Positions 1-23,000 of a stretch of 23,000 bases of DNA are shown piece after piece. The DNA lies in assembly GCA_030704615.1 (NCBI GenBank), contig JAKLZA010000169.1, positions 1 through 23,000 of the forward strand. Direction: 5' to 3'. The DNA comes from Takakia lepidozioides (taxonomy: Eukaryota > Plantae > Bryophyta). Positions within the stretch are counted from its first letter, which is position 1, and every line of letters begins with the position of its first letter. Below the pieces are notes generated by a model. It worked only from the letters and a program-made list of their open reading frames with translations, was not told the DNA's origin and did not search any database. The position numbers were made by a program, and so were the translations under genes.

Positions 1-129
1 TTTTGGTTGCATTGGCCACCATCGAAATGGAAAGGTGATGTAGTTTCTCTTGAGTCATTTCTGGCTTGGAGCCATACTTGTCATAGTGTGCTTTTCACCT
101 GCTCCAGAAATTCCGTGCCAAGACCTGGG

Positions 130-847
130 TGTCGCGGCCCTTTGCCTTGAGGGCAGGGGGTTGGGACACATGAGGGGCTGCCCCTGTGGTGGGGGCAGTG
201 GCAGCGATAGGTATGGGGCTGAGGCACCCTTGAGTGCCCAAGGCACTCAGGGAAGCGGAGGCGCTCACTAGGTGGAGCCCCGCAGTTGCGGTGGGGGTGG
301 CTCCACAAGGGGTGGTGGTAGCTTAGTGGGACTTAGTGGGGGTGTCATAGGACTCACCATGGGGGCGGAGACCTCGTGGTGGGAGTCGTGGGGAGTCTTG
401 GGACTCATCACGGTCCATAGGGGCCGTGGTGAGCGGGCCAAGACTCACCGCGACTCACCACCGGGAATCGAGGGTCTTCGTGGTGGTTCGCCATAAAATG
501 GCATGGCTGGTTGTGAAACCCCCGCGGACAGCTACAGAAGTATATATAGGGAGTAGTAACCCCGAGAACGGTGCAAGCCCGTTGGTGACCAAAAACTAGT
601 GAGTAAGCGAGCGAGCCGGAAAGCGACCAAAGAGTGGGGAGCTGTTCCGGACTGCCATCTACCAAAGGGAATTCTCCTAGTCCCAATTAGGTAGAGGGTT
701 TTAGAGGGAAGCGAAAGGGGACCGTTATGTCCCGGTGAGCAGCCGAAGCTCCAAGTTGGCCTGGCGGCCAGGTTGGGAGTTAGGCGCGCGCATCAAAGCG
801 AGTAACTATGACTTGAAGGGGAGTTTACCGAAGTGAGGTGCGCGACA
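130..847 (+). repeat. 5' LTR of chromovirus
   Basis: Starts TGTCGCGGCC, ends GTGCGCGACA; near-identical to 6365-7081; TATA-like TATATATAG at ~540. Confidence 0.96.
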
Positions 848-849
848 CT

Positions 850-861
850 TGGTATCAGAGC
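850..861 (+). promoter_or_regulatory. Primer binding site (tRNA-iMet)
   Basis: TGGTATCAGAGC 2 nt after the LTR end; canonical plant iMet PBS. Confidence 0.95.
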
Positions 862-902
862 TTAGAGTTCAGTACGCGATCGTCCTTGGGATTGGCCTCA
901 TC

Positions 903-1990
903 ATGGGGTCGGGCAAGCCGAAGCGAAAGCGGAACGGCCCAAAAGATGATGATCCCGGTGAGCCCGATGGGGGCGACGTGTCACCGAGGCGGCCGTTTGA
1001 GGAAGCGATGCATGTTTCCGAAAACGAGGCCGCCAAGAGCGGGAGGAATCCGAGGAGTCGGAGCCCGAGGAATCCTTGAGAGCTCCGACAAACCAAGAGA
1101 TGCCTCCCATGCCGGCAGCCTTTTGGGAAGGGTTGTTGGCGCAGTTTGGCGGGACGTTGAAAGACGTGTTGAAGGCGGCTAATGCCACTTCCACTAAGGC
1201 AAAGTTTAAGGTGAAGCCTAAGGAACCCGGCACCTTCGAGGGCGTCCGAAATCGGAAGGCACTCAACACCTGGCTCTTGGAGCTAGAGCAGTACTTCCGG
1301 GCGGCCAAGTTGAGTGACGAGGATCGGGTGGAAGTGGCTCCCACCTATTTGAGGGGCTATGCTCAACAATGGTGGCAGAAACGCCTTCACGACCGAGGTC
1401 CAAGCCCGGAAACCTTGAACTGGAGTGGGTTCAAGGAATTGATGAAGAGACAGTTTGTGCCCCTCAACGCGTCCTGGCTTGCCCGGGACAAGATGAGGAA
1501 TTTGAAGCAAACAGATGACATTCGGGGGTATGTCCAGGCTTTCAATGTGCTGTTGCTCGAAGTCGCGGACATGGCAGAACCAGAAATGGTCTTCAACTTT
1601 GTGGCGGGACTGGCCCCATGGGCCAGGCGGAAGTTGGAGGAGAAGCCACCCAAGACTTTGAACGAGGCAATTGAGAGGGCTGAATGTTTCTCGGATGTCC
1701 CTAGGGGTGAAGACAAGGCCGTACGGAGCTGAACCACAAGAAGACCCGGCGGGAAGGTGACTCCTTCCGACCGGAAAAGAAGTGGGATAGGCCACGCGGC
1801 GAAAATGGCACGTGGAAATCGAAGGGAGGGCCTTCACACGTCAAGGCGGCACCCGGTGCTTCGAAAGGAAAAGCGGGTGGAGCGGCTTATGGCGGACAGA
1901 AGGCGACCTTTGATGGAGTGTGTTTCAATTGCGGGGAGCCCGGGCACATGGCCAAGAAGTGCACGAAGCCCCGACAATTGAACATGACTC
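903..1990 (+). CDS. gag: Gag with CCHC zinc knuckle (frameshifted at ~1075 and ~1725)
   Basis: ATG at 903; Retrotrans_gag-like PGTFEGVRNRKALNTWL...YLRGYAQQWW...W..FK; CFNCGEPGHMAKKC at ~1921. Confidence 0.9.
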
Positions 1991-4900
1991 GGGCGACCAC
2001 GGAGCTGTCGGAAGATACCATCAGTCGCTTGGTGGAAGCGGTGGTCGCCAGGACTTGCAAGGTAGGCAAATTTTCTTGTGAGTTGTATCAGGAAACTGGC
2101 GCCTTACGAAAAGGGAGTCAGTTATTGTTCGTGGATGGGATAATATCCGGAACTAATGTGTCGTTGTTGGTGGACACAGGAGCGTCGCACTCCTTCATGA
2201 CACCGGCAACGGCACAAAAGCTGGGACTCCCGACAAGTGACGTGGGGCCTCTATTGAGGTGCGTTCTGCCAAAGGAGAACCACAGTTGGCGACAAGGTTG
2301 GCGTTTGATGTTCCTCTTCAACTGGGGAGTTGGGAGGGACGTGAGAACTTCACCATCTGCGAGATCGATGGAGTGGATCTCATTTTGGGGATGACCTTTT
2401 TGAGCAAATCCGGAGCGGTCATAGATGGCCGCAAGAGAGTAGTCACGCTGCCATGTGGGAATGGTGGCGAGGTTTTACGAGTGTCGGAAACGCCCAAATC
2501 CGTGGGAGGGCGAATAAACCTTCTGTCAGCAAAGGAGTGGGCCGTGGAGGAGGCACACGAGCCCCAGTTTTTGCTTTACATTAGAGAAGTGAAAGGAGAA
2601 GGCGATGGGGAGCCGAGCCCAGATTGGATCAAGGGGATTTTGGAGAAATACCAGGATGTGATGCCGGAGGATTTACCAAGCGGCTTGCCACCGCGAAGAG
2701 GAGTTGACCACAAGATTGAGGTGATACCGGGATCGGAACCGCCTGCCAAGGCGCCCTACCGGTTGAGCCACAGAGAGTTGGTCGAGCTGAAGACTCAGCT
2801 CAAGGATCTAATGTCAAAGGGGTACATCCGGCCGAGTAAGTCACCTTACGGAGCCCCGGTGCTATTCGCAGACAAGAAGGATGGGACGCTGCGGATGTGT
2901 GTCGATTACAGGGCTCTGAATAAGGTGACTATCAAAAACCGGTACCCTTTGCCAAGGATCGACGACCTCTTCGATCGGTTGGCAGGAGCGAAGTATTTCA
3001 GCCGGATCGACTTGCGCTCCGGCTATCATCAAATTCGGGTGGCGGAAGGAGATGAGGAGAAGACCGCGTGCAGGACAAGGTATGGTTCATATGAGTTCTT
3101 GGTGATGCCTTTTGGGCTCACCAATGCACCAGCGACATTTAGCACGCTGATGAACAGCCTTTTCCAGGAGTGGTTGGATGACTTTGTGATCGTGTACATC
3201 GACGACATCTTGGTGTACTCGAAAACAAAGGAGGAGCACCTGGAGCACCTCAAAAGGGTGTTCCAAAAATTGCGAGAAGGGAAGCTGTATGCCAAAGCTT
3301 CAAAGTGCGAATTCGGGGTCACAAAAGTGGAGTTCTGGGGCATGTGATTACACAGGATGGGATCAAAATGGATGACAGAAAGGTGAGGGCGATCTTGGAC
3401 TGGGAGCCTCCGACTTCGGTCCCGGGAGTGCGATCCTTCCTAGGACTCGCCTCCTATTACCGGAAGTATGTGAGAAATTTCGCCAAGATCGCGGGGCCGC
3501 TGTCAGACCTTCTGTGTAAATCCAAAGTCTGGGTATGGAACACCTTTTGTGGCCAAGCTTTTGCTGAATTGAAGCAGCGGATGGCGGAAGCTCCAGTCTT
3601 GAAAATCCCGGAGTTCGATCGTCCATTTGAGATTCATACAGATGCGTCGGACTTCGCGATTGGGGGTGTACTTATGCAAGATGGACGTCCAGTGGCTTAC
3701 GAAAGTAAGAAACTGAATGAAGTGGAGCGACGGTGGCCGACGCACGAAAAAGAGATGAAGGCGGTGGTGCATTGCCTTGAGCTTTGGCGCCACTATGTTG
3801 GTTCCAACCCAGTGAAGGTGTTCACGGACAATGTCACGGTGAAGTATTTTGCCACGCAGCCCAAGTTGTCCCCAAAACAACTTAGGTGGCAAGATACTTT
3901 GGCGGTGTTCGACGTGGATATCCAGTACAAACCGGGACGGGACAATGTGGTGGCCGATGCTTTAAGTAGAAAGCAGCAGCTCTTGTTGGTGTACAAGGGC
4001 GAGACGGCGCTCCAAAGGAAGATCCGGAAGGCTTGCCGGAAGGATGAGCTGGCGAAGTCCGTGATGCAGGACTTGAGGATGGGGGTTAAATCGCAGTTCC
4101 ACTTGCAAAATGGACTGCTCCGGTATAAGCAAAACGTCTCTACGTGCCGAAGGGAGGGATCAGAGATAGCCTCTTGAGAGAATGCCATGATAGCCCGCTT
4201 GCGGGCCACGGCGGAGCCAAGCGCACTGCGGCACTCTTGAAGAAAGAGTATTTCTGGCCCAAACTGAGGGAGGAGGCAGAGGAGTATGTCAAGACATGCA
4301 CCACATGCCAACAAAACCGGAGCGAGTACAAAAAGCAAGCGGGGCTGTTACAACCCTTGCCGATTCCAGAGGGGACTTGGGAAAGCGTCTCGATGGATTT
4401 CATGACTGCTATGCCGCTGTCAAAAGGATTCGATGCAATCATGGTGGTGGTGGATAGGTTCAGTAAAATGGGCCATTTCATCCCCACCAAGGAGACGGCA
4501 ACGGCGCAGGAGACAGGGCGACTTTACTTCGCCCACGTCTTAAAGCATCATGGAGTCCCGAAGGATATTGTCTCGGACCGCGATCCAAAGTTTACGAGTA
4601 AATTTTGGAGGACACTTTGGAAGAAGATGGGGACGAGGCTGAAGATGAGCACCGCCTTCCGACCTACGACGGACGGCCAAACGGAAAGAGTGAATTCCGT
4701 AGTGAAGCAATTCTTGCGGAATTACGTGTCGGCAGACCAATCAGACTGGATGGAACACTTAGACGCGGCAGAGTTCTGTTATAATAACACAGAACACTCC
4801 GCAACGGGAGTTTCCCCTTTCGTATTGGTCTATGGAAAAGCACCTCTGGTGCCGACAAGTTGGGCCGCCCAGGACGTTGAGGAACCGGCAGTAGCGGCGG

Positions 4901-5460
4901 TACTGGAAGAACGCGAGCGTTTGTTGAAGCTCGCAAAGTACAACATTGCCAAAGCTAGGAAACGGTATGAAAGGCAGGCGAATCGGAAGCGGAGGGAAGT
5001 GAAGTTTGAGGCAGGCACAGAGGTCTGGTTGAACATCAAGAATTTCCGACTACCTCCGGAAGTGAGTCCGAAGTTCGTACCTCCGTATGCGGGACCCTTT
5101 CGCATTCGGAAGGTTATGAATGAGGATGTGTATGAATTGGAGCTGCCGGCAAACAGCAAGGTGCACCCAGTATTCCATGTCTCCCTTTTGAAGCCTTACT
5201 TCAAAGATGAAGCGCGTCCGAATCGGCATCAAGTGTTGCGTCCGCCACCTATGCTGTTGGATCATGAAAATGAACCTGAGTACGAGGTGGAGGCAATACT
5301 TAAGTCGAGGAGGTTCAAGAACCGAGAAACGGAGTATCTCGTCAAATGGAAGGGCTATCATCATGTGGAGGCATCTTGGGTGCGTGCCTCAGAAATGGGA
5401 AACGCATCCGAGGCGGTTGCAGCTTTCGAAGGGCGACCTCAAAAGCGGAAGAAGCGTTGA
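1991..5460 (+). CDS. pol: Pol: aspartic protease, RT, RNase H, integrase, chromodomain (frameshifts at ~2250, ~3340, ~4135)
   Basis: [10 protein letters not shown]; [27 protein letters not shown]; TDAS...DALSR; HDSPLAGH...CTTC; SMDF/VSDRD/TDGQTE; YAGPF; C-terminal basic tail RPQKRKKR. Confidence 0.95.
5278..5430 (+). other. Integrase C-terminal chromodomain
   Basis: [35 protein letters not shown] retains the Y/W/Y aromatic cage residues. Confidence 0.92.
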
Positions 5461-6350
5461 TGGGGACATCAACCTTGGAGCGTGGGGGAGGAAATGCATG
5501 CTTAGCCCGGCTTAGCTAGCTTAGGAATCCGATTGCAAAAACTTGTATTGTACAAAAATTTGTTATAAAGGAAATGGGTTCCAAATGTTGTGCGTCCTAT
5601 TTTGTTTGGAATGGTGATGCATGGTATGGTTGGCTAGTGTGTAGAATGCATGCTAGCTTATAAAAGTGGGAGAGGTAAATTGGGTTAATCGTGTGTTTGC
5701 GTAGTGCCGAAATCGGGTGACCCCATCCAAGGGGCAAGGAAACTTGCGCCTTCTTTGGGAGTTCACGTGCTAGTGCGCACCTGGCGCGTGCGCGTACTAT
5801 AACTGCGCTACCGAGGGGGTTGCCTTGTAGTGCGGGCTAACGCGGAAGCTACGTGCTTCCGTTCACGTACTATAATCGTGTAGCCTCGGGACGAAGTCGT
5901 AGTGCGGCTTCGGCGTGTTCCCGTACCTCAGGCCAGCATTCCAAGGCGGACCCAATTGTAGTGATTGGGGCGCACGGTTGGTTCAAGGTTATCTTCCTAG
6001 TCAAAGAGGGTTCCAGGTGAACCCTTGCTCAAGGTGATGCCAAAAGCGGCATCATGAGCGATCGCAAGCAATGTTGTTGCAGTAAGGCGATTCGATCCTC
6101 GGGGAGGATCGTTCCTTGGCCTTGAAGTAGGCCAAGAAGAGTGCACTGGGAGGAGCTGGAGAGGCTCCACCCTTGGCCGGGACTTGGAGGAAGTCGGCCG
6201 AACTAGCTAGTGGAGAGTAGAGTCAAGTGTGGGGTTTGGTTCTTTGCCATGGGACGCCATGGTACGGAAACAAACTCCTTGATGTGGGACGCCACAACTT
6301 GGATGTTCGTTTCTACAAAATGGACAAGTCGATGAGGACATCGACTCCCT

Positions 6351-6364
6351 GTTGGTAGGGGGTG
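6351..6364 (+). promoter_or_regulatory. Polypurine tract-like site
   Basis: G-rich GTTGGTAGGGGGTG immediately before the 3' LTR. Confidence 0.8.
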
Positions 6365-7081
6365 TGTCGCGGCCCTTTGCCTTGAGGGCAGGGGGTCGGG
6401 ACACATGAGGGGCTGCCCCTGTGGTGGGGCAGCGGCAGCGATAGGTATGGGGCTGAAGCACCCTTGAGTGCCCAAGGCACTCAAGGAGGCGGAGGCGCTC
6501 ACTAGGTGGAGCCCCGCACACCGGGTTGCGGTGGGGGTGGCTCCACAAGGGGTGGTGGTAGCTTAGTGGGACTTAGTGGGGGTGGCATAGGACTCACCAT
6601 GGGGCGGAGACCTCGTGGTGGGAGTCGTGGGAGTCTTGGGACTCATCACGGTCCATAGGGGCCGGGTGAGTGGGCCAAGACTCACCGCGACTCACCACCG
6701 GGAATCGAGGGTCTTCGTGGTGGTTCGCCATAAAATGGCATGGCTGGTTGTGAAACCCCCGCGGACAGCTACAGAAGTATATATAGGGAGTAGTAACCCC
6801 GAGAACGGTGCAAGCCCGTTGGTGACCAAAAACTAGTGAGTAAGCGAGCGAGCCGGAAAGCGACCAAAGAGTGGGGAGCTGTTCCGGACTGCCATCTACC
6901 AAAGGGAATTCTCCTAGTCCCAATTAGGTGGAGGGTTTAGAGGGAAGCGAAAGGGGACCGTTATGTCCGGTGAGCAGCCGAAGCTCCAAGTTGGCCGGCG
7001 GCCAGGTTGGGAGTCAGGCGCGCGCATCAAAGCGAGTAACTATGACTTGAAGGGGAGTTTACCGAAGTGAGGTGCGCGACA
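6365..7081 (+). repeat. 3' LTR of chromovirus
   Basis: Direct repeat of 130-847; differs by roughly ten substitutions, a 6-bp insertion (CACCGG) and several 1-bp, mostly homopolymer, indels. Confidence 0.96.
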
Positions 7082-8373: not shown

Positions 8374-8781
8374 CTCATTCTCATAGACTGGAGCATTCAA
8401 GGCGGTGAACTGTGGCACTCGGCATCAATTGTCGCGGCAGCTCCGATTACAATAATGCGGGGAACCATGGAGCACTGCAATAGTTGATGACCGTCATCAA
8501 CGATATCAACCCCAATCGTTTTTACAACAATAAAAAATAAATTATATGCGGCGCTTTCGAGGGAAATTCATTTGTGTCTTTTTGCAAAAGGTCCGGCGAC
8601 ACTCCCGACTACTCGATCAAGACCTTGATTCAACAACTTGCAGATCACGGTTGTAAGGTCCGTGGGAGTATCCACTTGTCTATGACAAGACAACAATGTT
8701 ATCGACGGGATGCTGACCGTCAATGCGATCGTTTTTGGGTGCAATTATAATGACAATGTCAATAACGTTGATTTATGCTAA
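8373..8781 (+). pseudogene. KP4 killer-toxin-like pseudogene (5' truncated)
   Basis: LGINCRGS at 8418, NPNRFYNN, LADHGCKV, GMLTVN; in-frame stops TAG 8481 and TAA 8538 plus frameshifts; paralogous to 9292-9750, including the 3' UTR start GCGGAAAGCAAA. Confidence 0.9.
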
Positions 8782-9291: not shown

Positions 9292-9750
9292 ATGGCACTA
9301 CATTCATCAGTTGTCCTCACCGTTCTCATTCTCATAGCCTTGAGCATTCAAGGTGGTGTTGTGGCACTCGGCATCAACTGTCGCGGCAGCATGTTTTGCT
9401 GGAGTTATTGGGACTATAGAGAAGTACTATTTGCGTTGGAGAGCGTCATCGACTTTCATATCGACCCTAATCGCTTTTACAACAATGAAGAACAGATTGC
9501 CTGCGGCTTTTTTGAAGGACAAAGTTTTTATGGACAAACTTTTGTGTCTTCTGCCAAAGTTCCGGTGGCGCTCCCGGCTACTCGATCAAGACCTTGATTG
9601 GAGAACTTGCAGATCACGGTTGCAAGACCTGTGGGAGTATTCCACTTTTCTATCCACAACAATATTGCCAACGGAATATTGACAGTCAACGTGGTCAAAA
9701 ACGCCTGCAAATATGATACTTATGATGGTTACACCGTTGGCCTATGCTAG
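9292..9750 (+). CDS. Secreted KP4 killer-toxin-like protein (two compensating frameshifts at ~9541 and ~9658; gene or young pseudogene)
   Basis: 25-aa hydrophobic signal peptide, then LGINCRGSMFC...IAC...CVFCQ...LADHGCKTCGSIPLFYP...NIANGILTVN...GLC*. Matches the KP4 signatures LGINCRGS, HGCxxCGSxP and GxLTVN; intronless. Confidence 0.88.
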
Positions 9751-9850: not shown

Positions 9851-10613
9851 GTTAAGAATTGCTGACAAAACTTTAAACTCACTATGTAATAGTTACGCTG
9901 GAAGTGATATTTATGATATTTCAATAACTAATGGTAGTGGCAAATGTTTAAAAGCAATGTGTACAACAATTCAAATGTATATGAACATTTGGATATTTTC
10001 AACTATCTATGCTTAAATAATACTTAAGCAGTTCACACATTCAAAGTGACAATATATCAAGAAAGAAACCAATTTACTTTGGAAAAATCCATTGATTTTG
10101 GGTAGAAGGCCAAAAATGAAAACCATGTGTGGATGGGTAGAATTGTGAGTCCTCTAGCTATTCCCAAAAAACTACGTCAAAGAGGTTTCATATGACCAAT
10201 ATATGGCCAAACCTATAAAGTATAATCTAAATCTGACCTTATAAATTTTTAAATTTAAAACAATAAATATTAATTCCGCATTCATTACAATAATTTGAAA
10301 TTTGGCTTAGAAGCATATAATTGACCGATTAGTAAAATCTTTCACTATAGCTAGGGAACATTACTCACCTATACACGTGTGGAACAATATGAGTGGCTGA
10401 AAAATGCGTGGTACCAACTACGTGGATATACAGTCATGGACATTTTTTGATTCAATCTCTTCGTCTTAGTTTAACGAAGTCCTACATGTGCGAGCTTGCG
10501 TGATTATGTGTAGGAGCTAAGTCCTAAAATGTGTGATTTGTATTGTGTGTGTGATCTTTGAAGGTGGTTTTGCTAGCTTTTCTCATGTATAAAAAAGTAT
10601 GTTGTCACTCACC

Positions 10614-11333: not shown

Positions 11334-12037
11334 TATCAAGGTTTTGGTCATGGTTAGTTGGAATTACCTACTTCTAGTTAACTATGACATTTCGGATATT
11401 CATATTTAGTATTTTTGTGTGTTGGGACCTCATTTGGTCTCATATGACGTAAGGATGGTTTTCCGCTTGTGATGATTGATGAGGCTCACATTCTTGTAGT
11501 TGAGCCTCCATGAGTCTCTCTCACCTCCATAGCTCTAGGTATTGAGAGAGAGTGTAATAGAGGGCTTTATAGGGTGGATTCCTTATCAAAAGTGTCATTG
11601 GCTTGACTTAGTTTATGTTATGTGATTGAGTGGATTTCACTTGGTGGAGTGTGCCATTGCGTTTCTATCTTCTCTTCACGTTTCACAAGTCCCTAGGAAT
11701 CAACTAAGTGTGTGAAAACATGAGTGACAAGCATGAGAAAAGGGTGGATTCCAAAGAGCACCAAACAGCAGACTGCGTAAAAACACTCTGGGTGCTGCGT
11801 CTCAAGCTGTACACACCTGAAGAATGTTGAGCCAATAAGTCACACACACATGTCCACTGATGTCCCCTAAAAAATTCCAAGCAGCCCCAAGCTGCTGGGT
11901 TCTTTGGCATCAGCCTCGTATCCCGATGCACATTCACTTTCATTATCATTGTGGCATAGCTTTCTAGGATGGCTTGTTAGGAAATGTGGTTAGATAGCGA
12001 TGATGTGGGTTGTGGCACGATGCTTAGGTATACGACA
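11334..12037 (+). mobile_element. Diverged solo LTR related to the terminal repeat of the DNMT-carrying element, with a ~265-bp internal insertion
   Basis: Collinear inverted matches: 11498-11507/12325-12334, 11572-11582/12248-12258, 11599-11609/12218-12228, 11631-11639/12187-12195, 11943-11956/12136-12149; ends TATCAAG...ACGACA. Confidence 0.7.
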
Positions 12038-12057
12038 TGCTCAAAATTTAAATGTGT

Positions 12058-12584
12058 TGTCGTGCGCATACATATCGCTACACAACTACATCGCTGTCCA
12101 AACCACACCACACATATATGCACAATAAAGTAGTCTGCCACAATGATAACAAGCTAAAATGACACACACTCTCAACACAAGAAATATGAAATCCATCGCT
12201 ATCACTCTTTAAAATAGAAGTCGAGCCAGGGGCACCCCAAGCTATGGGGACTCCACCCCACAACAACCTATACTCCCATCATAAGCACACTCAGATCTAA
12301 ACGCATGAAGGAGCTCGGTCGCGCAGGCTCAACTCGAGAGAGATGAGCGCGCGACTGCCGCTCTCGTGAAGATAAGACGGTTCAGGTGTCAAACTAAACT
12401 TGACACCTGATTTAACACTTGACCTAAATCCAAGTGTTAAATACAAATAACTAGTTTTATTCTAGTTGTTTTCACACTGTGCTTATTTAACTTGACAGCT
12501 GTCGTGCGCATACATATCGCTACACAACTACATCGCTGTCCAAACCACACCACACATATATGCACAATAAAGTAGTCTGCCACA
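12058..12584 (-). repeat. 3' terminal repeat (LTR) with A-B-A structure
   Basis: Identical 87-bp direct repeats at 12058-12144 and 12500-12586. The minus strand reads PPT, TGTGGCAG...CACGACA, GC, TGTCAAG...CACGACA. Confidence 0.8.
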
Positions 12585-12596
12585 ATCGCCCCCTAG
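12585..12596 (-). promoter_or_regulatory. Polypurine tract-like site
   Basis: Minus-strand CTAGGGGGCGAT directly before TGTGGCAG. Confidence 0.65.
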
Positions 12597-12844
12597 CTGG
12601 TGGATAGGTCCCTCTACCTCCAGATAGCTACAAGATGTAATAGCCACAACCGTACTAAGTCCTCTATCACTGTCCCTATTGTACTCAAACTCTATAGACC
12701 AAGAGGCCGGGTACAAGAGTAGCCCCATCGTTAGTCGCCGTCTTGCAATCTGTGAACTTGAGCCAGGACCTCGTGTGTTCAAGGTCTCCTAGTAGCTGGG
12801 CCTTGCGTTTCTTGTTAGCCTTCCATGGTTGTATCCACTCCCAC

Positions 12845-12935
12845 TATCCAATGCAATGTGGACATAACCAATCCCCATCCGGAACCATCTAGAAGCAAGT
12901 GCCAGCACACCAACAAGCAACACACCCTCAAACCT
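12845..12935 (-). other. PHD-finger remnant at the integrase C-terminus
   Basis: GLR-C...LLVC...WHL...MVPDGDWLCPHC* read across a frameshift; the intervening loops are missing. Confidence 0.65.
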
Positions 12936-14090
12936 GCAGATACCACTGCCAGGTTTGGGTCAATCCTGCCATCGACATTCGGAAGGTGACATGGCGCACA
13001 ATTACGCACATGGTCCTTCCAAGTTATGCCATCCCGACCCTCCAAGACCAAGACGCCTGAGGGCAAGACCTCTCGAACCCTCAAAATAACACGTCCTGCA
13101 GTCACATCCAAGGTCGTAGGAGCAGTCTGCTGCAGATAGACATAGTCACCAGGGTTGAATCTCCGAACCCCAGGACGATAGCCCCCACCACGTATGGTAG
13201 CATACCTCAACGTATCACGGTGTTGTGCAATGGCAAGGTTCTCGAAAGCCATGGGCATGACTCTCTTGAACAACTCTGCACGCTGCTCACATGCACGTGC
13301 CCACACGTCCGGATCGTCAAGGTTAAGAACTGTAGCAGCTTCTCTGCGAATGGATGTAGGCAAATCCGGCTCTCGGCCAAAGAGAAGAAAGTATGGTGAG
13401 AAGGAGGCAAGTGATGCTTGCTTGCTGAACCTGTAGCCCATGGCTAACCAGGGTAACTGAAGGTCCCAATCTCCTAGGTGTCCCTTCTGCAAGCCATACT
13501 TGCGCCCTCTTTACTGTCCTGAACAACTCTCTCTGCCAAGCCATCGGCCTCAGGATGATCCGAGAAGTGGTGCGGTGGTCTATCAAGGCCTTGTCACACA
13601 AAGCCTGAAACTCCCCCAAGAACTCTCTCCCTTGGTCCGTGAGTACCTCAGCTGGAGCACCGAATCGGCTAAGCACACAATCCAAGAATGCATACGCAGC
13701 TCCCTCACTAGCCTTATCAGGCAATGGAACCAATTCAATCCACTTGGAGAAGTGCTCCACCATCACCAACACGTACTTGTTGTGGCGCATGGTCAGTGGC
13801 AACGGCCCTGCGAAGTCAAGACTCCACCTGTAGCCCAATCCATGATCGGAAGAGGGTGCAATTGTGGAGTAGGGGCGTTGAATGAAGCACGCACCCTGTC
13901 ACACACCATGCACCTAGCCACAAATTGTTGCACCTCTGTGTGCATACCACGCCACCAATACTGCCCCTGCAGTAGACTATGAGTGCGTCGCACCCCAAAA
14001 TGCCCCAACTCCTCATGGGCATGCCGCACTAACCGTGCCCGCTGTGTTGGGTGAGGCACAATCCTCACTCGACCATCCTCCCACACTCGG
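12936..14090 (-). CDS. Integrase (H2C2, DDE core, C-terminal domain), frameshifted
   Basis: HEELGHFG...CMVC; WSLDFAGP, VEHFSKW, LTDQGREF, DGLAE; WDLQLP...SPYFLLFGREP. Confidence 0.92.
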
Positions 14091-14399
14091 AGCAGGTGTG
14101 TCCCCTCCCACTTGAACCTCTGGCTCGTTGTAGGATCCGATCCCTCTCCTTGGCAGTCACAGTGGCTGCCGTGTCTCCAGTGCGGAGGTAGTCCAACACA
14201 ACTGAATCCTCATGTATATCTTTGGCGCCACCTTGCTCATTGCTGGCCTCAGGGTCCTCAGACACTTGATCTACAGTCATCCCTGTTGCAGGTCCAACCT
14301 GGCCTTCCGCTGCCAAGATACACAGAAATGCAGATGCATGCCATCCGGGCACCATCTCCTCGTCCGTCTCACCATGCCACCGAGCTCCAGTGTCATCCT

Positions 14400-14900
14400 G
14401 CTGGCTCGTGCATGGATTGCGACTCAACCCATCTGCATTGCGATTGACCAAACCCGGTCGATGCACCACCTGAAAGTCATACTCTTGAAGGATGAGTGCC
14501 CACCGTGCAAGCTTCCCCGTAAGCTTGTCTGACTCCATCAACCACTTGAGTGGTTGGTGATCCGTGACAAGGGTGAAGAGATTGCCGTATAGATAGCACC
14601 TGAAGTGTGCCACGGCCCACACTGCAGCTAAGCATTCTCCCTCATATGAGCTATACTTAGACTCTGCAGCATTGTTCGAGCGGCTAGCATAAGCCACTAC
14701 GAACTCTCTTCCCTCATCATCCACCTGTGTGAGCACCGCTCCAAGCCCCAGCATGCTCCAATCTGTATGCAGCTGAAAAGGACGCCCCCTGATAGGTCGT
14801 CTCAAGATGGGCGCCGAGGTCAACCTCGCCTTGAGCTCTTGAAAAGCTTGTTCTTGCTCATCTTCCCACTGCCACTCCTGGTCCACCTTGGTCAGCTTGT
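14400..14900 (-). CDS. RNase H
   Basis: FQLHTDWS, YEGECLAAVWAV, TDHQPL, NADGLSR. Confidence 0.93.
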
Positions 14901-15720
14901 GGAACCTGTGCAATGGACTCTACCTTAGTCTGCTGTACCCCCAATCCTCCAGGATATATCATGTGACCCAGATACTCAATCTGGTTGTGGAAAAACTTGC
15001 ACTTGCCCGGATGTAACTTCAATCCGTGCGTCCTCAAGCGCTCAAATACCCCCTGAAGGTGTCTCTCATGCTCCTCCACCGTAGCACTAAAGATGATGAT
15101 GTCATCTATGTAGCACCGAGCAAACTCCACCCCTGCTAGAATCCTGTCCATGACTCTTTGAAACTCAGCGGGAGCGTTTTTAAGCCCAAATGGTAAGAAC
15201 CGCCACTGGTATAGGCAATCCTTCCCGTGCTCATTGATCCCCCAGAATGCCGTCTTTTGCTTATCCGCCTCCTTGATCGGCAACTGGTGATATCCGGATC
15301 GTAAATCCAACGTGCTAAAGACCTTGGAATGCCCAATGGCATCAAAGATCTCCTCTGGTGTCGGCATGGCATACCTATCGGACTTGGTCTGACGATTTAC
15401 AGGCCGGTAATCACCGCACATACGTCTCTCCGTCCAATTGCCATAGACATCCTTCTTGCTGGCATCACTGTGGCTGAAGCATACTCTCCACCAGAGAGCT
15501 CCACCAAACCTGCCTCCCAGAGATCTTGAGTCCTCATCTGAATCAAAGACCTCTCCATGTCACTATCTATAGGGTCTCCGAAAGATTGGCGTGTCAGTGG
15601 CCAACTCAATACGGATCTCTTGACCCTTCAGTGCTCCCAAGTCCTTCAAACTGAAGGCAAAGCAATTCCTGTAAGCCCTCAGGAACCGCCGTATACGTCG
15701 TCTCTCTCCTCCGGTGACAA
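14901..15720 (-). CDS. Reverse transcriptase (thumb segment deleted)
   Basis: [38 protein letters not shown]. Confidence 0.95.
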
Positions 15721-16099
15721 TGGGTCCAATGTCAGGCTCCCAATTGTCCTCCGTAACTGCAACCTTAAGTCCAGTGGGCTTAGAGGTAGAGGACGCGTCC
15801 CGTGGTTGCTATGCTGCAACCTCTTGAGCAGTACTCCCTTCCTGCTCAGTCAATGACAAGGCCTCATCCTGCCCCATCATCTCATCATTGAGAACCTCCT
15901 CAACCCGAGAAGAATCCCCAACCTCATCCATCACAGCTGCCTTGGCTGCCAACTCCCTCTGAACCTCGAGCACCCCACGTGTGCCATGGATGTCTACACC
16001 CGTGGTCCTCACCGGCTCGCCCCCACTCGCTGCCTGTACCGTCTCGGTAGGCAGAGAGACCGTCAAGGGAAGTGCACTCCGCACTCTACGTTGCTCAGC

Positions 16100-17056
16100 C
16101 ATAGCCAAGCTGATAATCCAGGTCAAGCAATTGAGATCCATTGCTTGCCCCAACACCTGACGACGTGATGCCTCAGAAAGAGAAGGCACCGCCGTGGTCC
16201 CAGTGGAAAACCCCATAGCCCGCTCTCGCTCGTCGGCATTAGGCTCCACTAACTGCTGCAACTGAGCATCCCACAGGAGGCCAGGTCCACCATCCCGAAA
16301 AGCATGGGATCCTGGGAAGCTGAGCAGTGTAGGTAATGCTGCTCGTGGTTGACCCACCCTGTTGACCACTGCCAAAGGCGAACGGTCATCGTGTCTCACA
16401 CGTTGAGACTGCCTCCTGTGTCCAAAATGCCATCCACGGTGAGGTGTGCTGGCCGCTGCACCCCATCAAATGCACGCTTGAGCAGTGCGGGTGGCATCAA
16501 GTTAGTCCACCATAGCCGTGGACGATGAGCCCGTGACCCCACTGCAGCTGCATCCAGCAACACTGCTGACCCAAGCCACGACCGGACTTGATGCACACTG
16601 GCCATCACCCTGGCCCGAGAATCACCCATCAGTGGCACATTCTCCAAGATGTATGCTGGAGATACAGCTTGATGAAGCTGCAAGTGGCGCAAAATCCGCA
16701 CCATCTCCCAAAACAGACCCGTCCTCGAGTCTCGCAATCCATTGCCATGCCCGGCTGATGAATGCCCTTGGCAGGGCCAACCTGCCACTACCAGATCAAT
16801 GGAGCCAACCTGCTCCAAATCCGGCCCCCAGCAACGAAATGTCTGCTGGCAAGGCTTGTTGGTATCCACGAACTGCAGACACTGGCAACAAAGTCAGGGT
16901 ACTGCTGTACCAACTGAGCAACATGGCGCAGTGAGACGCGTCGTGCAGTCTCATCCCTCTCCACATACAGGTAACGTTACCCGCACACCTGCCTGTAGCA
17001 CAGCAGCCAATCCGGTGCTGATCCCGCCAAACAAGTCCAGAAGGCAAATGCCTTCA
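16100..17056 (-). CDS. C5-cytosine DNA methyltransferase domain (DNMT3-like motif style), split by frameshifts
   Basis: Motif I LLDLFGGIS, II YVERD, IV AGWPCQG (PC at 16771-16776), VI ILENV, VIII AHRPRLWWTNL, IX ERERAMGF, X RRQVLGQAM, all in canonical order. Confidence 0.93.
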
Positions 17057-17449
17057 TCCGGATACTGCCACACAATAGGTGTGGTATCCAATGGTGACAA
17101 CTGAGGTGGTCCTGGTGCAATACCACTCTCCTCCTCTCCTGACGGTACAAAAGCCTCTACCCAGGCTTGTTGCACCCGTCGATCAGCAACCTGCTGCAAA
17201 TCCTTGCTCGTACCCCACAATGGAGTGTGAGCAACCATGGCAGGCAACTCCGCCATACCATGCATGTCATCCTGCTCTGCTGGAGGTGGCACATCCTCTG
17301 CATGGGCATTGCCTTCCAGCAACTCTCCAGGCCAACTAACTGCAGCTGTAAAGGCGGCTAGTGTTGGCATCTTGCCCCGCTGGGCAGCCGCAATACCCCC
17401 AATGAATGTCACAGGGAGCTGTGCACGGCGACCATCCCTGACTGCCATC

Positions 17450-17850
17450 CAGGCCTGTAGGATGCTGACTCCTCCCAAAAGTCCAGGGTGAAGCCCATGG
17501 GGTATAACACTGCCCCACCAACGAGGACATCGTAAGAGACCGCGTCTGTCACAATGGCCTTGGCTCGCATCACTGAGCCATCTATAGGATGATCCGGCTG
17601 CAGTCTAATGGCCAACTGATGCCGTGTCATGCCCGAGCCTGCTCTGATCCTCCCAGAGATGTCTGTATCTGGAAAGGACAAGGCTCCATATCCGCCTCCA
17701 TGAGGCCCAAACCTGCAATAGCAGCTCTGCCCAACATCAGTGGCTGAGCTCCCGAGTCCAACAAGACCCAGTGGCCGGTACTTCTTGCCTGCCGGTCCAC
17801 TCAAAGTGAAAATGCCTCCTGGTTGTCTAACAAGACAACTCCAGGTGTCA
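17450..17850 (-). CDS. Retropepsin-like aspartic protease
   Basis: VLLDSGAQPLMLG (Asp at 17756-17758, in a frame not shown in the ORF track) and YDVLVGG. Confidence 0.85.
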
Positions 17851-18499
17851 CCATGGCGCGCTCAAAGGCTGGCCTAGCTGGCAGCTCCGTCAACCTGGCA
17901 GCTGCAGCTTGCCAGGGCGCAGCCGTGGCAGTCTTGACCCTCAAATCCGAGGATCCCTCTGCCACTACACCTTCCACTAACTCCGCAGAAGATGAAGTGA
18001 CCTCCCCACTCTCACAGAGTGTTGCTGCTAGTCTGAACACTGCAGCTGGTCTTACCCCGGCGTCGCAATCATGGTTGCCGAGAACAGTGGGGCTTGACAC
18101 ACAGAGGTGGCTGCCCCCAATAACACACCGGCTGCACTAGCCTTGGTAGCAGGTGTCAGTGCTGCACGTGTAGCTCTCCCCAATGGCATAGTAACCTCCG
18201 CCTCGGTAACAGTCGGGCGAGAACTAGGTGCCATGGATGGCGTCGACACTGTCTCCGCCAATGTGAATGACTGAGGAAGCCTCGCCTGACGGCTTGCCTC
18301 CCCACGCTGTGGATCCAATTCCACCTCTGCACCTCGTGGCTCAGGAACTCGTGCTGCTCCTCGAGTCACGGCTGCAGCAGACTCCACCTGCTCTAGTGGT
18401 AGTGCTGCTCCGCACATGAATCCCATGCCTCCCATATCTCCTCCCTCAGGAGCAGGAGGTGGACCATCCCGCCTGGGAGCCGGTACCGCCTGAGCTATA

Positions 18500-19936
18500 G
18501 CCATGGCAGCGAGCCTCTGCTCTAGCTGCTGAAGCCGGTTGGCCATGCCTTGGTCAACACCCTGACCTCCGCGTCCTTGGCCATGTGGAGCTTGCCCTTG
18601 GCCTGCACCTCGTGCCCGACCACCTCGTCCTCTCTGGGCTGGTCCACCTCGCCCCGGCCACCATTGTTCCCTTGGAACTGGCCTGGGCGCAACTCAGGAT
18701 GCAAGTCATAACACTGGGCATCTCCATGCCCATACTTGCCACAATGCCCACACTGCAACTGTGCAGGCTGTGCTTGTGCCGGCCTTTTGCCACTCTCTGG
18801 GCAATCTCTCTTGACATGGGGTCCTCCACATGTCCAACATATCACCCCTGGTTGCTGTTGGCCTGCAAAAGATGCCACGGGCCTCTGCACCTGAGGTCCC
18901 CTGTAAGCTCCATGGAACTTGGGCTGGGCAACCTTGCCCCCCTGACCACGCTGTTGGGCAGTCCCTTGTGCCTGTGGGCTGACAGCTGTGCCCCGTGCAG
19001 GCATGTCCTTGCCAAATCCAATGTAACAACTCGCTCCTCCACCATGTTGAGCTCAATCCGCTCAGCCAGCAGAAACACATCTGCTAATGTGGGTTGGGCT
19101 GCTTGTAACAGGGTTGCATCTCGCACCCTTCTCTTGAGCTCCTTGTCCAGAATTCCATACCAAAACTGGATTGCCTGAGCTTCAGTAACCCCTTGGGTCA
19201 CACTTATCAAGCGCCTCATACGAGTGTACGCCTCTCGCAGGCTCTCACTGGGTTTGCGCTGGAAGTCTTGCAAACTTCGCAGCTTCTCTGTCCGTACACC
19301 TTGGTAGTTCCTCCGCAACTCCTGGAAGAACTCCACCACCGGGTTGAATCTAGGCACATGTGTTGTAGTCGTGGCAGGAGGAGTAGTAGCACCTTTTGAA
19401 CTGGTACCACCTGCAGAAGTACCACTACTTGCTCCACTACTAGTGCTGGCAGTGGGAGCTATTGGTACTGATGCAGCTACTGGTCGCGTCGTGCCTCGAG
19501 TAATGGAGACGTAGTCAGGTGACCAATACATCCTCCACTCCTCAATCTCTGCTTCATGTCCTCGCCTGAACTCGTGGTAATCGTCCATAGGCGGGCCTTC
19601 CAAATGCTGGAACAGTCCCTTCCACGCCATGAATGGGGTGAATAGCTGTGGATTGCGCATCTGCTGCAAATCACACCAGCTGTCGAACTCCTGGATAAAG
19701 TCATCCAACTCGATTGTGCCCACAGCTCCAGAGTACCTACGAGGCCCCTTGGTAGCTCCATACATCTCCTCCATGTCGTCCCACAACAATGGCGAATGAA
19801 AGTGCACACCTGTTGATGAAGCCTCCGAGTCTGTGTCTGACTCTACAGTAATTGAGGGTGGCGGTGAAGGTGGTCTGAACCGAATACCTCGTCTTGTGAA
19901 CCCACTCTCACTGTTACTGCCTGTAGCCGTACTCCC
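18500..19936 (-). CDS. gag: Gag-like protein with two zinc knuckles
   Basis: LDDFIQEFDSWC...LQDFQRKPSESLREAYTRM; knuckles CWTCGGPHVKRDC and CGHCGKYGHGDAQC; the frame stays open upstream of 19807 to ~19936. Confidence 0.85.
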
Positions 19937-20629
19937 TCAAAACCCTTGGGTAACTCCGTAATGACACTCACAATGTGCACCTCCTCCACGTGACACTATA
20001 AGGCTCTAGTACTAATCTAATAGTGACACGGGTGGGCACCTGTTGCAGTTTAAGGGTCATATCCCAATGGCTCAGGGCACCTGCACCTGCATCCACCGCA
20101 AGAACTCCTATGGTTGGCTGGTCATCAACCCAGCCTCACCATAGAAGAAACACTGGTGGTCTTGCTGGTCATCACTCCAGCCTCACCACCGACAGCATAC
20201 TCTAGGATTGACCGGTGATCAAATCCGGCCTAATCCCTATGAAAGCAAGCGCCCACACAAAACCAACATGGCGCACAGTCAAGCATGCAGGTGTTGGGGG
20301 GATCCAAACACAAGAAATCAAAACATCAACACCCCCACACCAAAATCCAGCTGCAATGCTGATCCTGCAGAATATCCCAGCCCAAAACCCCGGACTGACT
20401 GGCCTCCACCAAGAGAGGCTTTGGCAACTACAAGTACAAGGTAATGAAAATAGTACAGAGATGGAGGGGAAGAATAGAAGCCCGACCAAGCAAGATCTAA
20501 TCCTGATCTATGCTATCAACTGCCAGACTTCTCTCAAAGTGCCTCGCTCTGCATGATGGTAAGGTGTAGGAGGTATATCTATGTCCAGAAACCTGCCACT
20601 AACCTTGTCCCAAGCTACAGTAGCTCGCT

Positions 20630-21340
20630 CTAACCAACCCTCCTCCTCTTTCTGCCAGGTAGAGACAAAGCAATACTCCCTATCTCCCGCTCACTGAACA
20701 CTAAAGAAAACAAAGGTAGGGTCTGATAGTCTCTCAACTCGAAAGCTTTGAGACGGTTGCGGGTGTCCTCATTGCGAATGACTGCATCTCCTTCAAACAG
20801 AACAAACTTGTCATTGCTAATGAACCCCCGCTCGTGGTTGCCTTGTGCAGAGCGTGTCCGGCTGCAACCATGTCTGATTGCACAAACTTGTGTAGCTCCT
20901 GCTCCTCTGCTCCAGTACACCACGGCCTTGTGGCTGAACACTTGGTCCCCGGGGCTGTCTTTGGCTGTGTTCCAAGCCTAGCTTTCACCCACTTTGGTAT
21001 TTCACCTACAGCTGCAGAACTGCTGGCTCCAACAGAGTTCTGACTCCAAGGCGATATTGAGGCCCTCAATGCCAACTACAGCAGTCTGTTGTCTACTGCT
21101 AATGCCTGACTCCCAGTATGCAATCAACTCGTCCAACTGTTCTCCACTCAAATCAGTCTGAGTTCCTTGGGAAACATAAATCTTGTCCCCTTGTGCACAG
21201 GCTAAGAGAAGAGACCTGCCCTTCAATTACGTCCTCATTTCCCCCAGCCATACAAGGAGTACATCCCCAGATTTGTCTCTCATGTAGACCAGAACAGGTT
21301 CTAGAAACAGGATTGTGGATCTTTCATGGCACACTCACAC
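20630..21340 (-). pseudogene. Degenerate ORF of unknown function upstream of gag
   Basis: ORF pieces 21002-21226 and 20630-20941 share one frame, separated by a few stops; protein-like composition; no recognisable motif. Confidence 0.3.
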
Positions 21341-23000
21341 TCTAAAAATTCCATAGATTTTTAGCAGAGTCCCAAAAACAAAAACCAGGTCTAGATAGGT
21401 AGATTTCCCTTTCTGCAGCTATCCCCCCAAAAACTGAGTCAAACGAGCCATTTGACAAAGATATGACCAATTTGGCTTTAAATCATTTAATTAGATCAAA
21501 GGGTTTTTTTTAAAGGTTTTCAAATTTAAAAATTTAAAGTTACACCCAAAATATCTGGTAACTGGTTCCCGGTTCCTAAGTTCTATATGGTTTCCTAGGT
21601 TTCCCTGGCCACGTGCCCTATAATTTCTAGATTTCAGTTGTGTTTACAAATGCACCCCCCACAGCTCTTGGTTACCAGTGACCTGCTCTCCTCCAGTCGA
21701 GATCCGTAGCTATGCGAGCCTTAATCCTTTGCACCAATATTCCCAACAAAAGCAAGAGCACTTACAATGCAACCCCGGAAAGCACCAGAGCTAACTAGCT
21801 TGATCAAGAACGCTTACAGCCCTTCATGCGTGCTGATTTTTCAAGGTGACAACAACAGATCTGCTATCACTGATTGTGTAAGCCTTTACATGGAGTTGGC
21901 ACAGGCTGCCCTCAAGTTTGAATTGTAAACATAGACCAAGCAGGTCGTGTAGTGAGCTGGGCCCCTTCAGCTCATATCCCGCTCATACACAAGTGTCACT
22001 GGTGAGTCCACAGTCTCCCACTCTCATACTCTCCAGTAAAGATTGCCTGAGGCTTGCTGTTGCAAATGGCGTAAGTGCAGCAACTTGTTGTGCTGGCTCA
22101 ATGTGGAGTTCAGCTGCATTAACCATCTTTACAAGGCCATGCACAGGCTCATGTAAAAATTGCCAAGCTATAGTTCAAAGAACCACAAAGAAAAGCTGCT
22201 GTGGCCAGCTTGACCAACCACGAGGCACAAGGCGCTAGTCCCAACTTTCACTATTGGCTGGAAAGATTGCCAACCATTCTTTCACCACAACCTTAGAAAT
22301 CTTCATCAGGTGTGTGAATTAATGCTTCAGGGGCTCAAAAGTACTGAGTACTGGCTGGCAGGAAGTTGCAATGCCCCACATCAAGGTGGCCTGTAAGCAC
22401 TGCACCACGAGCTTCTCTTCAACAGTGCGCGGGTGTCCAACTGCCCTCATGCCTTCTGCACTCCAGCCATCTCGAGCCACAAAACCCATTCCACTAGAAG
22501 CAACACTCAACCAACGAAGTGACAATGGAAGGCTACACAGATGGTACGCCGAGATCAGCGACATGCATCTCTCTGACAAACAGTTCTTTGCAACGGAGCG
22601 CGCCTACCAAACTCGCTCTGCGCAGAATCTGCCAACGATCAATGACACACATGCCCAGGCGCTCCAGCAACACAAACTCCTGTGACAACCAACCGTCAGA
22701 CCACCAGATTATCCTCCGCTCTGCAACACCTACGCCACCTGGTGCTCTTGGCTAACAACCCAGGTATCAAACGAGCACCGAGTGCGCTCAACAGTGATCC
22801 AGCTCCCACTCTGATCCAAAAGTACGCTACGCCAGGCCCCTCACAACACATGGACACCTCCGTTCACCGATCACTGCCTTTACTAAGCACGGTAGCAAAC
22901 TATGGTCTGGACTTCTCAAAATCGAGCTCCTCCACCTGCGACTGATGGCATTGTGCTCTTAAGACAACCGCGCCTTTGTTATGGAGATGGCCTTGGCGAT

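Follow-up and report, generated by a model that had tools for sequence, protein, structure and literature searches.

A bryophyte Ty3/Gypsy family carries a Dnmt3-type methyltransferase at the end of its Gag frame, before a conserved in-frame stop codon

What a DNA methyltransferase does for the retrotransposon that carries it has been an open question since 2018, the known hosts Symbiodinium and Klebsormidium being hard to work with and the enzyme of the Gypsy element having been silent in yeast. A passage in a review describes methylase-bearing transposons as absent from land plants such as tracheophytes (PMC6338049). In contrast to that passage, we find such elements in mosses and liverworts. 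Our starting point is a window of 23,000 nt (the whole stretch of DNA analysed, positions 1 to 23,000 of contig JAKLZA010000169.1 of Takakia lepidozioides), the minus strand of which holds a defective copy of a high-copy bryophyte Ty3/Gypsy family with a Dnmt3-type C5-cytosine DNA methyltransferase (DNMT); the copy itself is dead or mis-assembled. The locus raises the questions of whether the enzyme belongs to the element, in which reading frame it is made and on which DNA it would act. DNMT-bearing Gypsy elements as such are known. The present family stands out by its land-plant range, the placement of the enzyme on the Gag side with a putatively leaky stop of viral type, and a predicted circle route of integration.

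A preliminary description of this DNA had reported a full set of C5-methyltransferase motifs, with no sign of introns, on the same strand as and between a protease and a reverse transcriptase (RT). This was borne out: between the protease DSG (17758) and the RT motif YIDD (15112), motifs I to X follow in normal order (I, DLFGGI, ~17037; II, YVERD; IV, GWPCQ, with the catalytic PC at 16776-16771; VI, ENV, 16644; VIII, RAHRPRLWW; IX; X, GQAMD, 16150), and no intron is needed to read the domain. The comparison with PF00145 (DNA_methylase) that the same description had proposed matched the piece 16399-16893 with E=1e-13 and a score of 51.9 bits (cut-off 22). Among solved structures, the matches by sequence were, in order, DNMT3A/DNMT3B, DRM and bacterial HhaI. 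The unbroken DNMT domain of a related locus, L046, was modelled with a predicted local distance difference test (pLDDT) score of 96.7, and its best fold match was DNMT3A-DNA (E=6e-20, template modelling (TM) score 0.74). The catalytic cysteine, the glutamate of ENV and the motif VIII residues show at least 90% invariance in 86 sequences. By its motifs, its catalytic PC and ENV, and its modelled fold, the domain is a Dnmt3-type C5-methyltransferase with predicted activity.

Relative to intact relatives, the window copy contains 16 frame switches, nine of them before the stop codon described below (four in the DNMT) and seven after it. The break sites differ in length among contigs of four sequencing runs, and the breaks therefore belong to the window copy or its assembly; breaks of a similar kind occur in the chromovirus next to it. 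Contig depth is even and high from ~11900 to 21480, figures that do not give a copy number; because it is even across the DNMT and its neighbours, the DNMT can be assigned to a repeated family. The element has the Gypsy domain order Gag-protease-RT-RNase H-integrase with a DDE integrase. Its earlier classification as a Ty3/Gypsy retrotransposon thus holds with respect to domain order and ownership of the DNMT, but split repeats take the place of ordinary long terminal repeats (LTRs).

To place the copy, we compared it with related proteins (P numbers) and with 80 metagenome loci (L numbers). The Marchantia protein P0011 aligns over the entire gag-protease-DNMT stretch of the window (66% identity between the gag region and its residues 1-248), and Gag, protease and DNMT are collinear in Marchantia, Calypogeia and Sphagnum proteins. 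The protease is collinear with P0011 and with Klebsormidium P0065, and the intact relative L064 gives a weak match to Pfam Asp_protease_2. A search with the DNMT core returned 94 proteins, comprising 17 from Marchantia, four from Calypogeia, four from Sphagnum, one from Riccia, two from Klebsormidium and 66 without an organism name; no vascular-plant protein was among them. With 26 of the 94 being named bryophyte proteins, many on chromosome-scale contigs, the suggestion that the lineage is present in land plants was confirmed. Identity over the DNMT core is 65-73% for the bryophytes. The proposed kinship with a charophyte element also held, the Klebsormidium domain (KFL_009030040) having the same position and 49% identity. 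A single capture shared by the two would be possible, the deep branches of the trees described next being unsettled and the DNMT tree including no host Dnmt3 outgroup. In an RT tree of 40 rows, from which L065 was left out as too short, the window falls into a 98/87 clade with Calypogeia, Marchantia and a group of metagenome loci that we call peat type, and Klebsormidium lies outside. This placement points to a bryophyte host, and one sequencing run that contains the DNA is labelled plant metagenome. A DNMT tree from a quick search (44 rows) recovered the same group at a Shimodaira-Hasegawa (SH) support of 99, within a clade of 15 rows (97) whose proteins terminate soon after the DNMT. Two further relatives may be mentioned: P0096, an RT-RNase H-integrase-PHD protein from a Coleochaete scutata transcript, adjoins the bryophyte clade in the RT tree, and P0278 (from the cluster of P0100, of the L064 family) is filed under an uncultured Synechococcales cyanobacterium and is probably plant or algal DNA in that bin.

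The DNMT is under purifying selection, with ratios of nonsynonymous to synonymous substitution rates (dN/dS) of 0.10-0.17 between families. Over the 325-codon domain, dN/dS was 0.126 for L064-L065, 0.121 and 0.102 for comparisons with L068, and 0.17 for both L046-L001 and L046-L010, synonymous sites between families being near saturation and many other pairs saturated; the RT of L064-L068 gave 0.034. Among DNMT variants of the window family, 15 of 25 were synonymous against an expectation of 30% (p=0.002), in a test drawn from the 40 best-supported of 67 variants with those near indels left out. Five of eight checked Marchantia ORF1 proteins retain all six motifs.

The position of the enzyme within the coding capacity differs from what had been proposed, namely a DNMT inside Pol in one apparent polyprotein. 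The first open reading frame (ORF1) encodes Gag, protease and DNMT and ends at an in-frame UAG, so that the DNMT closes the Gag frame. In the window, the DNMT tail is followed by TAG CAA CCA and the RT frame continues in phase. The single-polyprotein view fails because this stop parts the tail from RT as a feature of the family and not through decay. A junction pattern matched 58 of 81 sequences (the 80 loci and the window, which fall into few independent families); in 56 of these 58, an in-frame stop precedes the first conserved motif of ORF2 by 16-24 codons, and in two a Tyr codon stands at the stop position. CAR follows the stop directly in 55 of the 56 loci. In the intact L064, frames of 1369 and 1047 aa are parted by the TAG alone. 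The linkers come in six lengths (348-471 nt), all of which hold the frame, with one in-frame stop (two in L060) against 4-12 in the other frames. Marchantia ORF1 proteins end 79 aa past the DNMT; the stop in the Marchantia, Sphagnum and Calypogeia records is known from protein ends only. The window junction was unchanged in contigs of runs X7 and X8, all differences of which lay elsewhere. In P0065, P0069, P0059, P0118 and P0119, the DNMT is continuous with RT, with no stop.

The stop contexts were TAG CAA CCA in the window and L046, TAG CAG TTA in L064 and L065, and TAG CAA TCA in L068, all of which fit CAR YYA, and TAG or TAA CAA CCC in the peat type and TAG TAG CCA in L060 (missed by the pattern), which do not. 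UAG CAR YYA is thus present in four of six divergent families (that of the window and three of five others), while the chance rate of CARYYA after any stop triplet in the examined sequences is 0.2%. SIRE1 uses a CAR YYA readthrough signal at its pol-env junction. UAG CAR YYA is described as the type I readthrough signal of tobamoviruses, and the likeness to these viruses, the benyviruses and the pomoviruses extends, in the parts of the source concerned, to a next frame in phase and a polymerase downstream (PMC3542737). The putative signal described here differs in standing in a retrotransposon and behind Gag-protease-DNMT. One account calls gag-pol readthrough rare (PMC3441728). We searched for a shared 3′ stimulatory RNA fold after the stop and found none in the six families (z -0.2 to -2.6); 36 pattern matches in viral contigs included none that was related. 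The stop is likely to be read through to yield RT-RNase H-integrase-PHD, and in the bryophyte branch each Gag chain would then come with the methylase, and RT-integrase would arise only from occasional readthrough. A leaky stop of this kind predicts a large excess of methylase over RT. As a separate observation, the peat-type stop (e.g. L001:10955-10966) is TAA in 15 of 46 loci and is replaced by a Tyr codon in L031 and L032, possibly reflecting a switch from readthrough to reinitiation, or decay.

The ends of the element are likewise unusual. An 87-nt repeat occurs twice at the 3′ end of the window element. Beyond the leader, matches to the repeat A2 and its primer complement were sought, and neither a 5′ terminal repeat (A1) nor a primer site was found in the window. 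Longer loci have the layout A1-coding region-B1-NN-A2-B2 (A...B-GC-A-B) instead of two full direct LTRs, of which the window has B-GC-A-B only. In relatives the element starts with TGTCA and finishes with GACA, the B1/A2 junction reads GACA-GC-TGTC in the window and most loci, and the window, L050 and L064 have a polypurine tract immediately in front of B1. Among nine insertions with both ends, a 4-bp target duplication was exact in six and had one mismatch in three, and the repeat order was A-B-A-B in four, A-B in four and rearranged in one. The 16 bases after A1 pair 16/16 with a site at TATA+26 in six of 23 A1 copies, a result that none of 200 shuffles per copy gave; in 15 of the 23, the best primer-pairing site was at this offset. 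In L064, a different 16-nt sequence has the same self-primer geometry. The primer site and the polypurine tract thus enclose B-GC-A, which should be the LTR of the linear complementary DNA (cDNA), whereas the element as integrated ends at the inner palindrome. This suggests that the A...B-GC-A-B form arises from a two-LTR circle opened at the inner palindrome of one LTR. From such an anatomy, a DDE integrase would be predicted to follow an unusual route by way of a circle. At L066:12725-13192 and L069:5352-5819, the A-B joint retains the first bases of the primer site, possibly as an imprecise circle joint or a deletion product.

Taken as a whole, we consider it fairly probable that the Gag-protease-DNMT frame ends at a conserved UAG CAR YYA that is likely read through, and that the DNMT is packed at the level of the coat protein and would methylate the new DNA of the element. 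In such a cycle, a single transcript would start ~26 nt past the TATA box of repeat A and serve as its own primer for the minus strand. Most ribosomes would halt at the UAG and a few per cent go on into ORF2. Each Gag chain would carry DNMT into the particle, either released by the protease or still part of the chain. The plus strand, started at the polypurine tract, would complete a linear DNA with B-GC-A at both ends; once these were joined, integrase would cut the inner GACA|GC|TGTC palindrome to leave the integrated A...B-GC-A-B. Before integration, the DNMT would methylate the new DNA, probably at CG, as camouflage or protection, and a circular intermediate lingering in the nucleus would add to the need for it. 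Since three architectures link the domain to Gag, RT or integrase, it would be expected to stay with the particle, where new cDNA is the only DNA. By analogy, methylation of the element's own cDNA is likely: the study of 2018 reports, in its relevant sections, de novo CG methylation in yeast by a Dnmt3 borne on a DIRS element, and proposes camouflage or protection of cDNA (de Mendoza et al., PMC5890265).

Several observations weigh against parts of this account, and they bear on the alternatives to different degrees. The window copy is heavily broken and the DNMT of two decayed peat-type copies gave a dN/dS of 0.89, which would speak for the reading that the DNMT is a decayed passenger or a nested insertion, or the contig algal or contaminant. 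In view of the collinear relatives and even depth, the selection between families and the position among bryophytes in both trees, we regard this as refuted for the family and extremely improbable overall, and none of the three outcomes that the preliminary description had named against itself occurred. A stop that is real while ORF2 is reached by splicing over it or by reinitiation at a nearby ATG would remove the need for readthrough. Ogre elements splice over a stop, and the gene models P0005 and P0079 do so here, at different places and skipping different stretches. The largest sampled family, the peat type, has the weaker context CAA CCC with an ATG directly after it and may therefore reinitiate instead; the nearest ATG in L060 and L068 is no more than 14 codons away. 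However, the linker is in frame and stop-free in six families, the window, L046 and L064 have no ATG ahead of the conserved motif of ORF2 (in L064, where that motif starts at codon 24, there is none in the first 110 codons of ORF2), and conservation of CAR YY would be needless under splicing. We therefore hold a general bypass of this kind to be quite improbable. Relatives in which the DNMT forms a fusion with RT, or sits between RNase H and integrase, further indicate that a Gag-level dose is not required everywhere.

With regard to the role of the enzyme, the same anatomy and readthrough would also be compatible with an abundant DNMT that acts outside the particle. After entering the nucleus, it would methylate or simply bind the promoter of the element, the place of insertion or further copies, whether to restrain the element or, alongside the PHD finger, to help in targeting. 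Gag-level output would give far more enzyme than one cDNA needs, the PHD finger on the integrase points to chromatin reading, and such nuclear roles are among those listed by de Mendoza et al. in the sections concerned (PMC5890265). Against this, each of the three architectures keeps the domain with the particle by fusing it to Gag or, in relatives, to RT or integrase, and the near invariance of the catalytic cysteine, ENV and motif VIII in the 86 sequences argues against a role in binding only; we consider action outside the particle unlikely. That action on cDNA occurs at all is weakened by the Klebsormidium DNMT, which gave no activity in yeast, a result that its authors call inconclusive in the passage concerned (PMC5890265). 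CpG depletion was also considered as a trace of methylation. At codon positions 3-1, the CpG ratio is 0.31-0.44 in the window element versus 0.63-0.80 in a neighbouring chromovirus; however, all seven stretches of other retroelements in related loci had ratios (0.17-0.50) as low as or lower than the DNMT elements there (0.53). The depletion is therefore not specific to DNMT-bearing elements and was rejected as evidence. For the circle there is a competing explanation, by which an extra strand transfer copies B to the end of the linear cDNA and integrase acts as usual. Ordinary TG...CA ends with 4-bp duplications would suit it, as would the A2|B2 joint, which has the same 1-nt overlap in six loci as expected of a templated jump. 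The joint has extra bases in L059, L078 and the window, though, the primer site and polypurine tract enclose B-GC-A and not A-B, and A...B forms with target duplications exist (the four insertions above), though perhaps from B1 x B2 recombination. We consider a linear route less likely than the circle, though far from remote. Weighing against the self-primer, eight of the 23 A1 copies, which are decayed, lack primer pairing at the expected place, and the end of repeat A in L064 was deduced, not mapped.

The closest known element is KnitGypsy-Dnmt3 of Klebsormidium nitens. In the parts of its description that concern it, this element is placed in Klebsormidium only, has an intronless Dnmt3-type domain inside Pol, between protease and RT and under purifying selection, and has a DIRS-like repeat layout (Fig. 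4 legend; PMC5890265); the corresponding part of PMC12344493 repeats the 2018 result. All but the first and the frame are shared by the window family. The Klebsormidium domain lies in the Pol frame, continuous with RT (P0065, P0069), whereas that of the window family ends the Gag frame before UAG CAR YYA, and the window family lives in land plants and forms a separate branch in both trees. Acquisition was assigned to the K. nitens lineage in the same source (PMC5890265), but the relatives found here span chlorophytes to bryophytes. SymbioDIRS-Dnmt3 of Symbiodinium, the retrotransposon-borne Dnmt3 for which de novo CG methylation was shown, differs in its DIRS order and dinoflagellate host and is described there as an independent capture (PMC5890265). 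With DIRS elements of the PAT/Ngaro/TOC1 type, the window family shares the A...B-A-B order (PMC8557442), which implies a circular intermediate; unlike these, which use a tyrosine recombinase, it has a DDE integrase, TG...CA ends, 4-bp target duplications and a Gypsy RT. Self-priming is described, in the portion of the source concerned, for Tf1/Sushi and Tcn1, which likewise lack a tRNA primer site and in which the predicted start of the transcript is matched by complementary sequence past the 5′ repeat (PMC6317226). The window family differs in having a PHD finger instead of a chromodomain, split repeats and the DNMT. The paper on the REXdb lineages Phygy and Selgy mentions neither a methyltransferase nor a PHD finger. 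In our literature search, the coverage of which did not extend to subscription papers and Repbase, no publication turned up that describes bryophyte Gypsy elements with a DNMT, the stop, or circle-junction integration for them.

A DNMT profile search extended the range further, its matches (E up to 1e-30) falling into 436 clusters at the 50% identity level. Among its best 150 matches were 146 new proteins (P0121-P0266), in which RT came before the DNMT in 46, after it in four and was absent from 96. The order RT-RNase H-DNMT-integrase, mostly with a PHD finger, was found in 16 of 22 scanned profile matches and represents a third architecture; one protein is named pol of the chlorophyte Scenedesmus sp. 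PABB004. Tentatively, and with more doubt than conviction, these data may be read as one green-lineage Gypsy clade, from Scenedesmus to Marchantia and Sphagnum, that kept a single captured Dnmt3 for hundreds of millions of years and shifted it between Pol and Gag. Its land-plant branch would dose the enzyme by a virus-type leaky stop, methylate cDNA in the particle and, unlike ordinary LTR elements, integrate through a two-LTR circle that a DDE integrase cuts at the inner palindrome. Full-length first-frame copies lie on Marchantia chromosomes, filed as 'hypothetical proteins', and since Marchantia has genetics and methylomes and carries such copies, the role of the enzyme becomes testable. 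Counts of bryophyte DNA methyltransferase genes may be inflated by element-borne genes.

The features of the window element are listed in Table 1. Just before its RNase H, ~33 codons are absent in alignment to P0098 and P0095. The PHD finger, of which the window retains a remnant, is intact in L064, L068 and P0096.

Table 1. Features of the DNMT-bearing element, with positions in the 23,000-nt window
Feature	Position	Strand	Evidence or remark
5′ leader of the element	19940..21480	-	Contig depth high to ~21480, then ~100-fold drop
gag region, two zinc knuckles, broken by frame switches	18050..19936	-	Pfam Retrotrans_gag E=7e-4 (below cut-off)
Aspartic protease	17440..17800	-	LLDSG at 17764-17750 (D at 17758)
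Dnmt3-type C5-cytosine methyltransferase domain	16096..17064	-	Motifs I-X unpermuted; four frame switches in window copy
ORF1 C-terminal tail after DNMT	15812..16095	-	Open to the stop in all six families
In-frame stop TAG CAA CCA, type I (UAG CAR YYA) context	15803..15811 (TAG 15811-15809)	-	Sequence; kept in relatives
ORF2 start and reverse transcriptase	14900..15802	-	YIDD 15112-15101; Pfam RVT_1 E=1.7e-33
RNase H	14479..14868	-	Pfam RT_RNaseH E=1e-36
DDE integrase (H2C2, core, C-terminal part)	12926..14050	-	Pfam Integrase_H2C2 4e-17, rve 2e-14
C-terminal PHD finger remnant	12790..12925	-	LRC..C and WLCPHC in different frames
Polypurine tract CCAGCTAGGGGGCG directly before B1	12587..12600	-	Same motif and place in L050, L064 and most peat-type loci
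Repeat B1, 87 nt, ends GACA	12500..12586	-	Sequence repeat
2-nt spacer GC and repeat A2 (TGTCA start)	12145..12499	-	GACA-GC-TGTC, inner palindrome; same junction in related loci
Repeat B2, identical to B1; GACA is the element 3′ end	12058..12144	-	Sequence repeat

The remainder of the window holds a full chromovirus-type Gypsy element on the plus strand (80-7081), with a chromodomain and LTRs that are 97% identical; the RT of the DNMT element is only ~35% identical to that of this chromovirus. Its primer site TGGTATCAGAGC is, judged by its motif, of the initiator-tRNA type, and Tcn1 was for this reason dropped as a name for it. Its four frame switches and its LTR differences fall largely in single-base runs, which suggests long-read assembly errors in the window. 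Two tandem KP4-like genes lie at 8374-8723 and 9292-9750 (the second with Pfam Kp4 E=9e-10, the first decayed), and no relative of these was found by search. Finally, AT-rich stretches at 10083-10210 and 21345-21470 are 71% similar, and the first may be a leader remnant of a related element.

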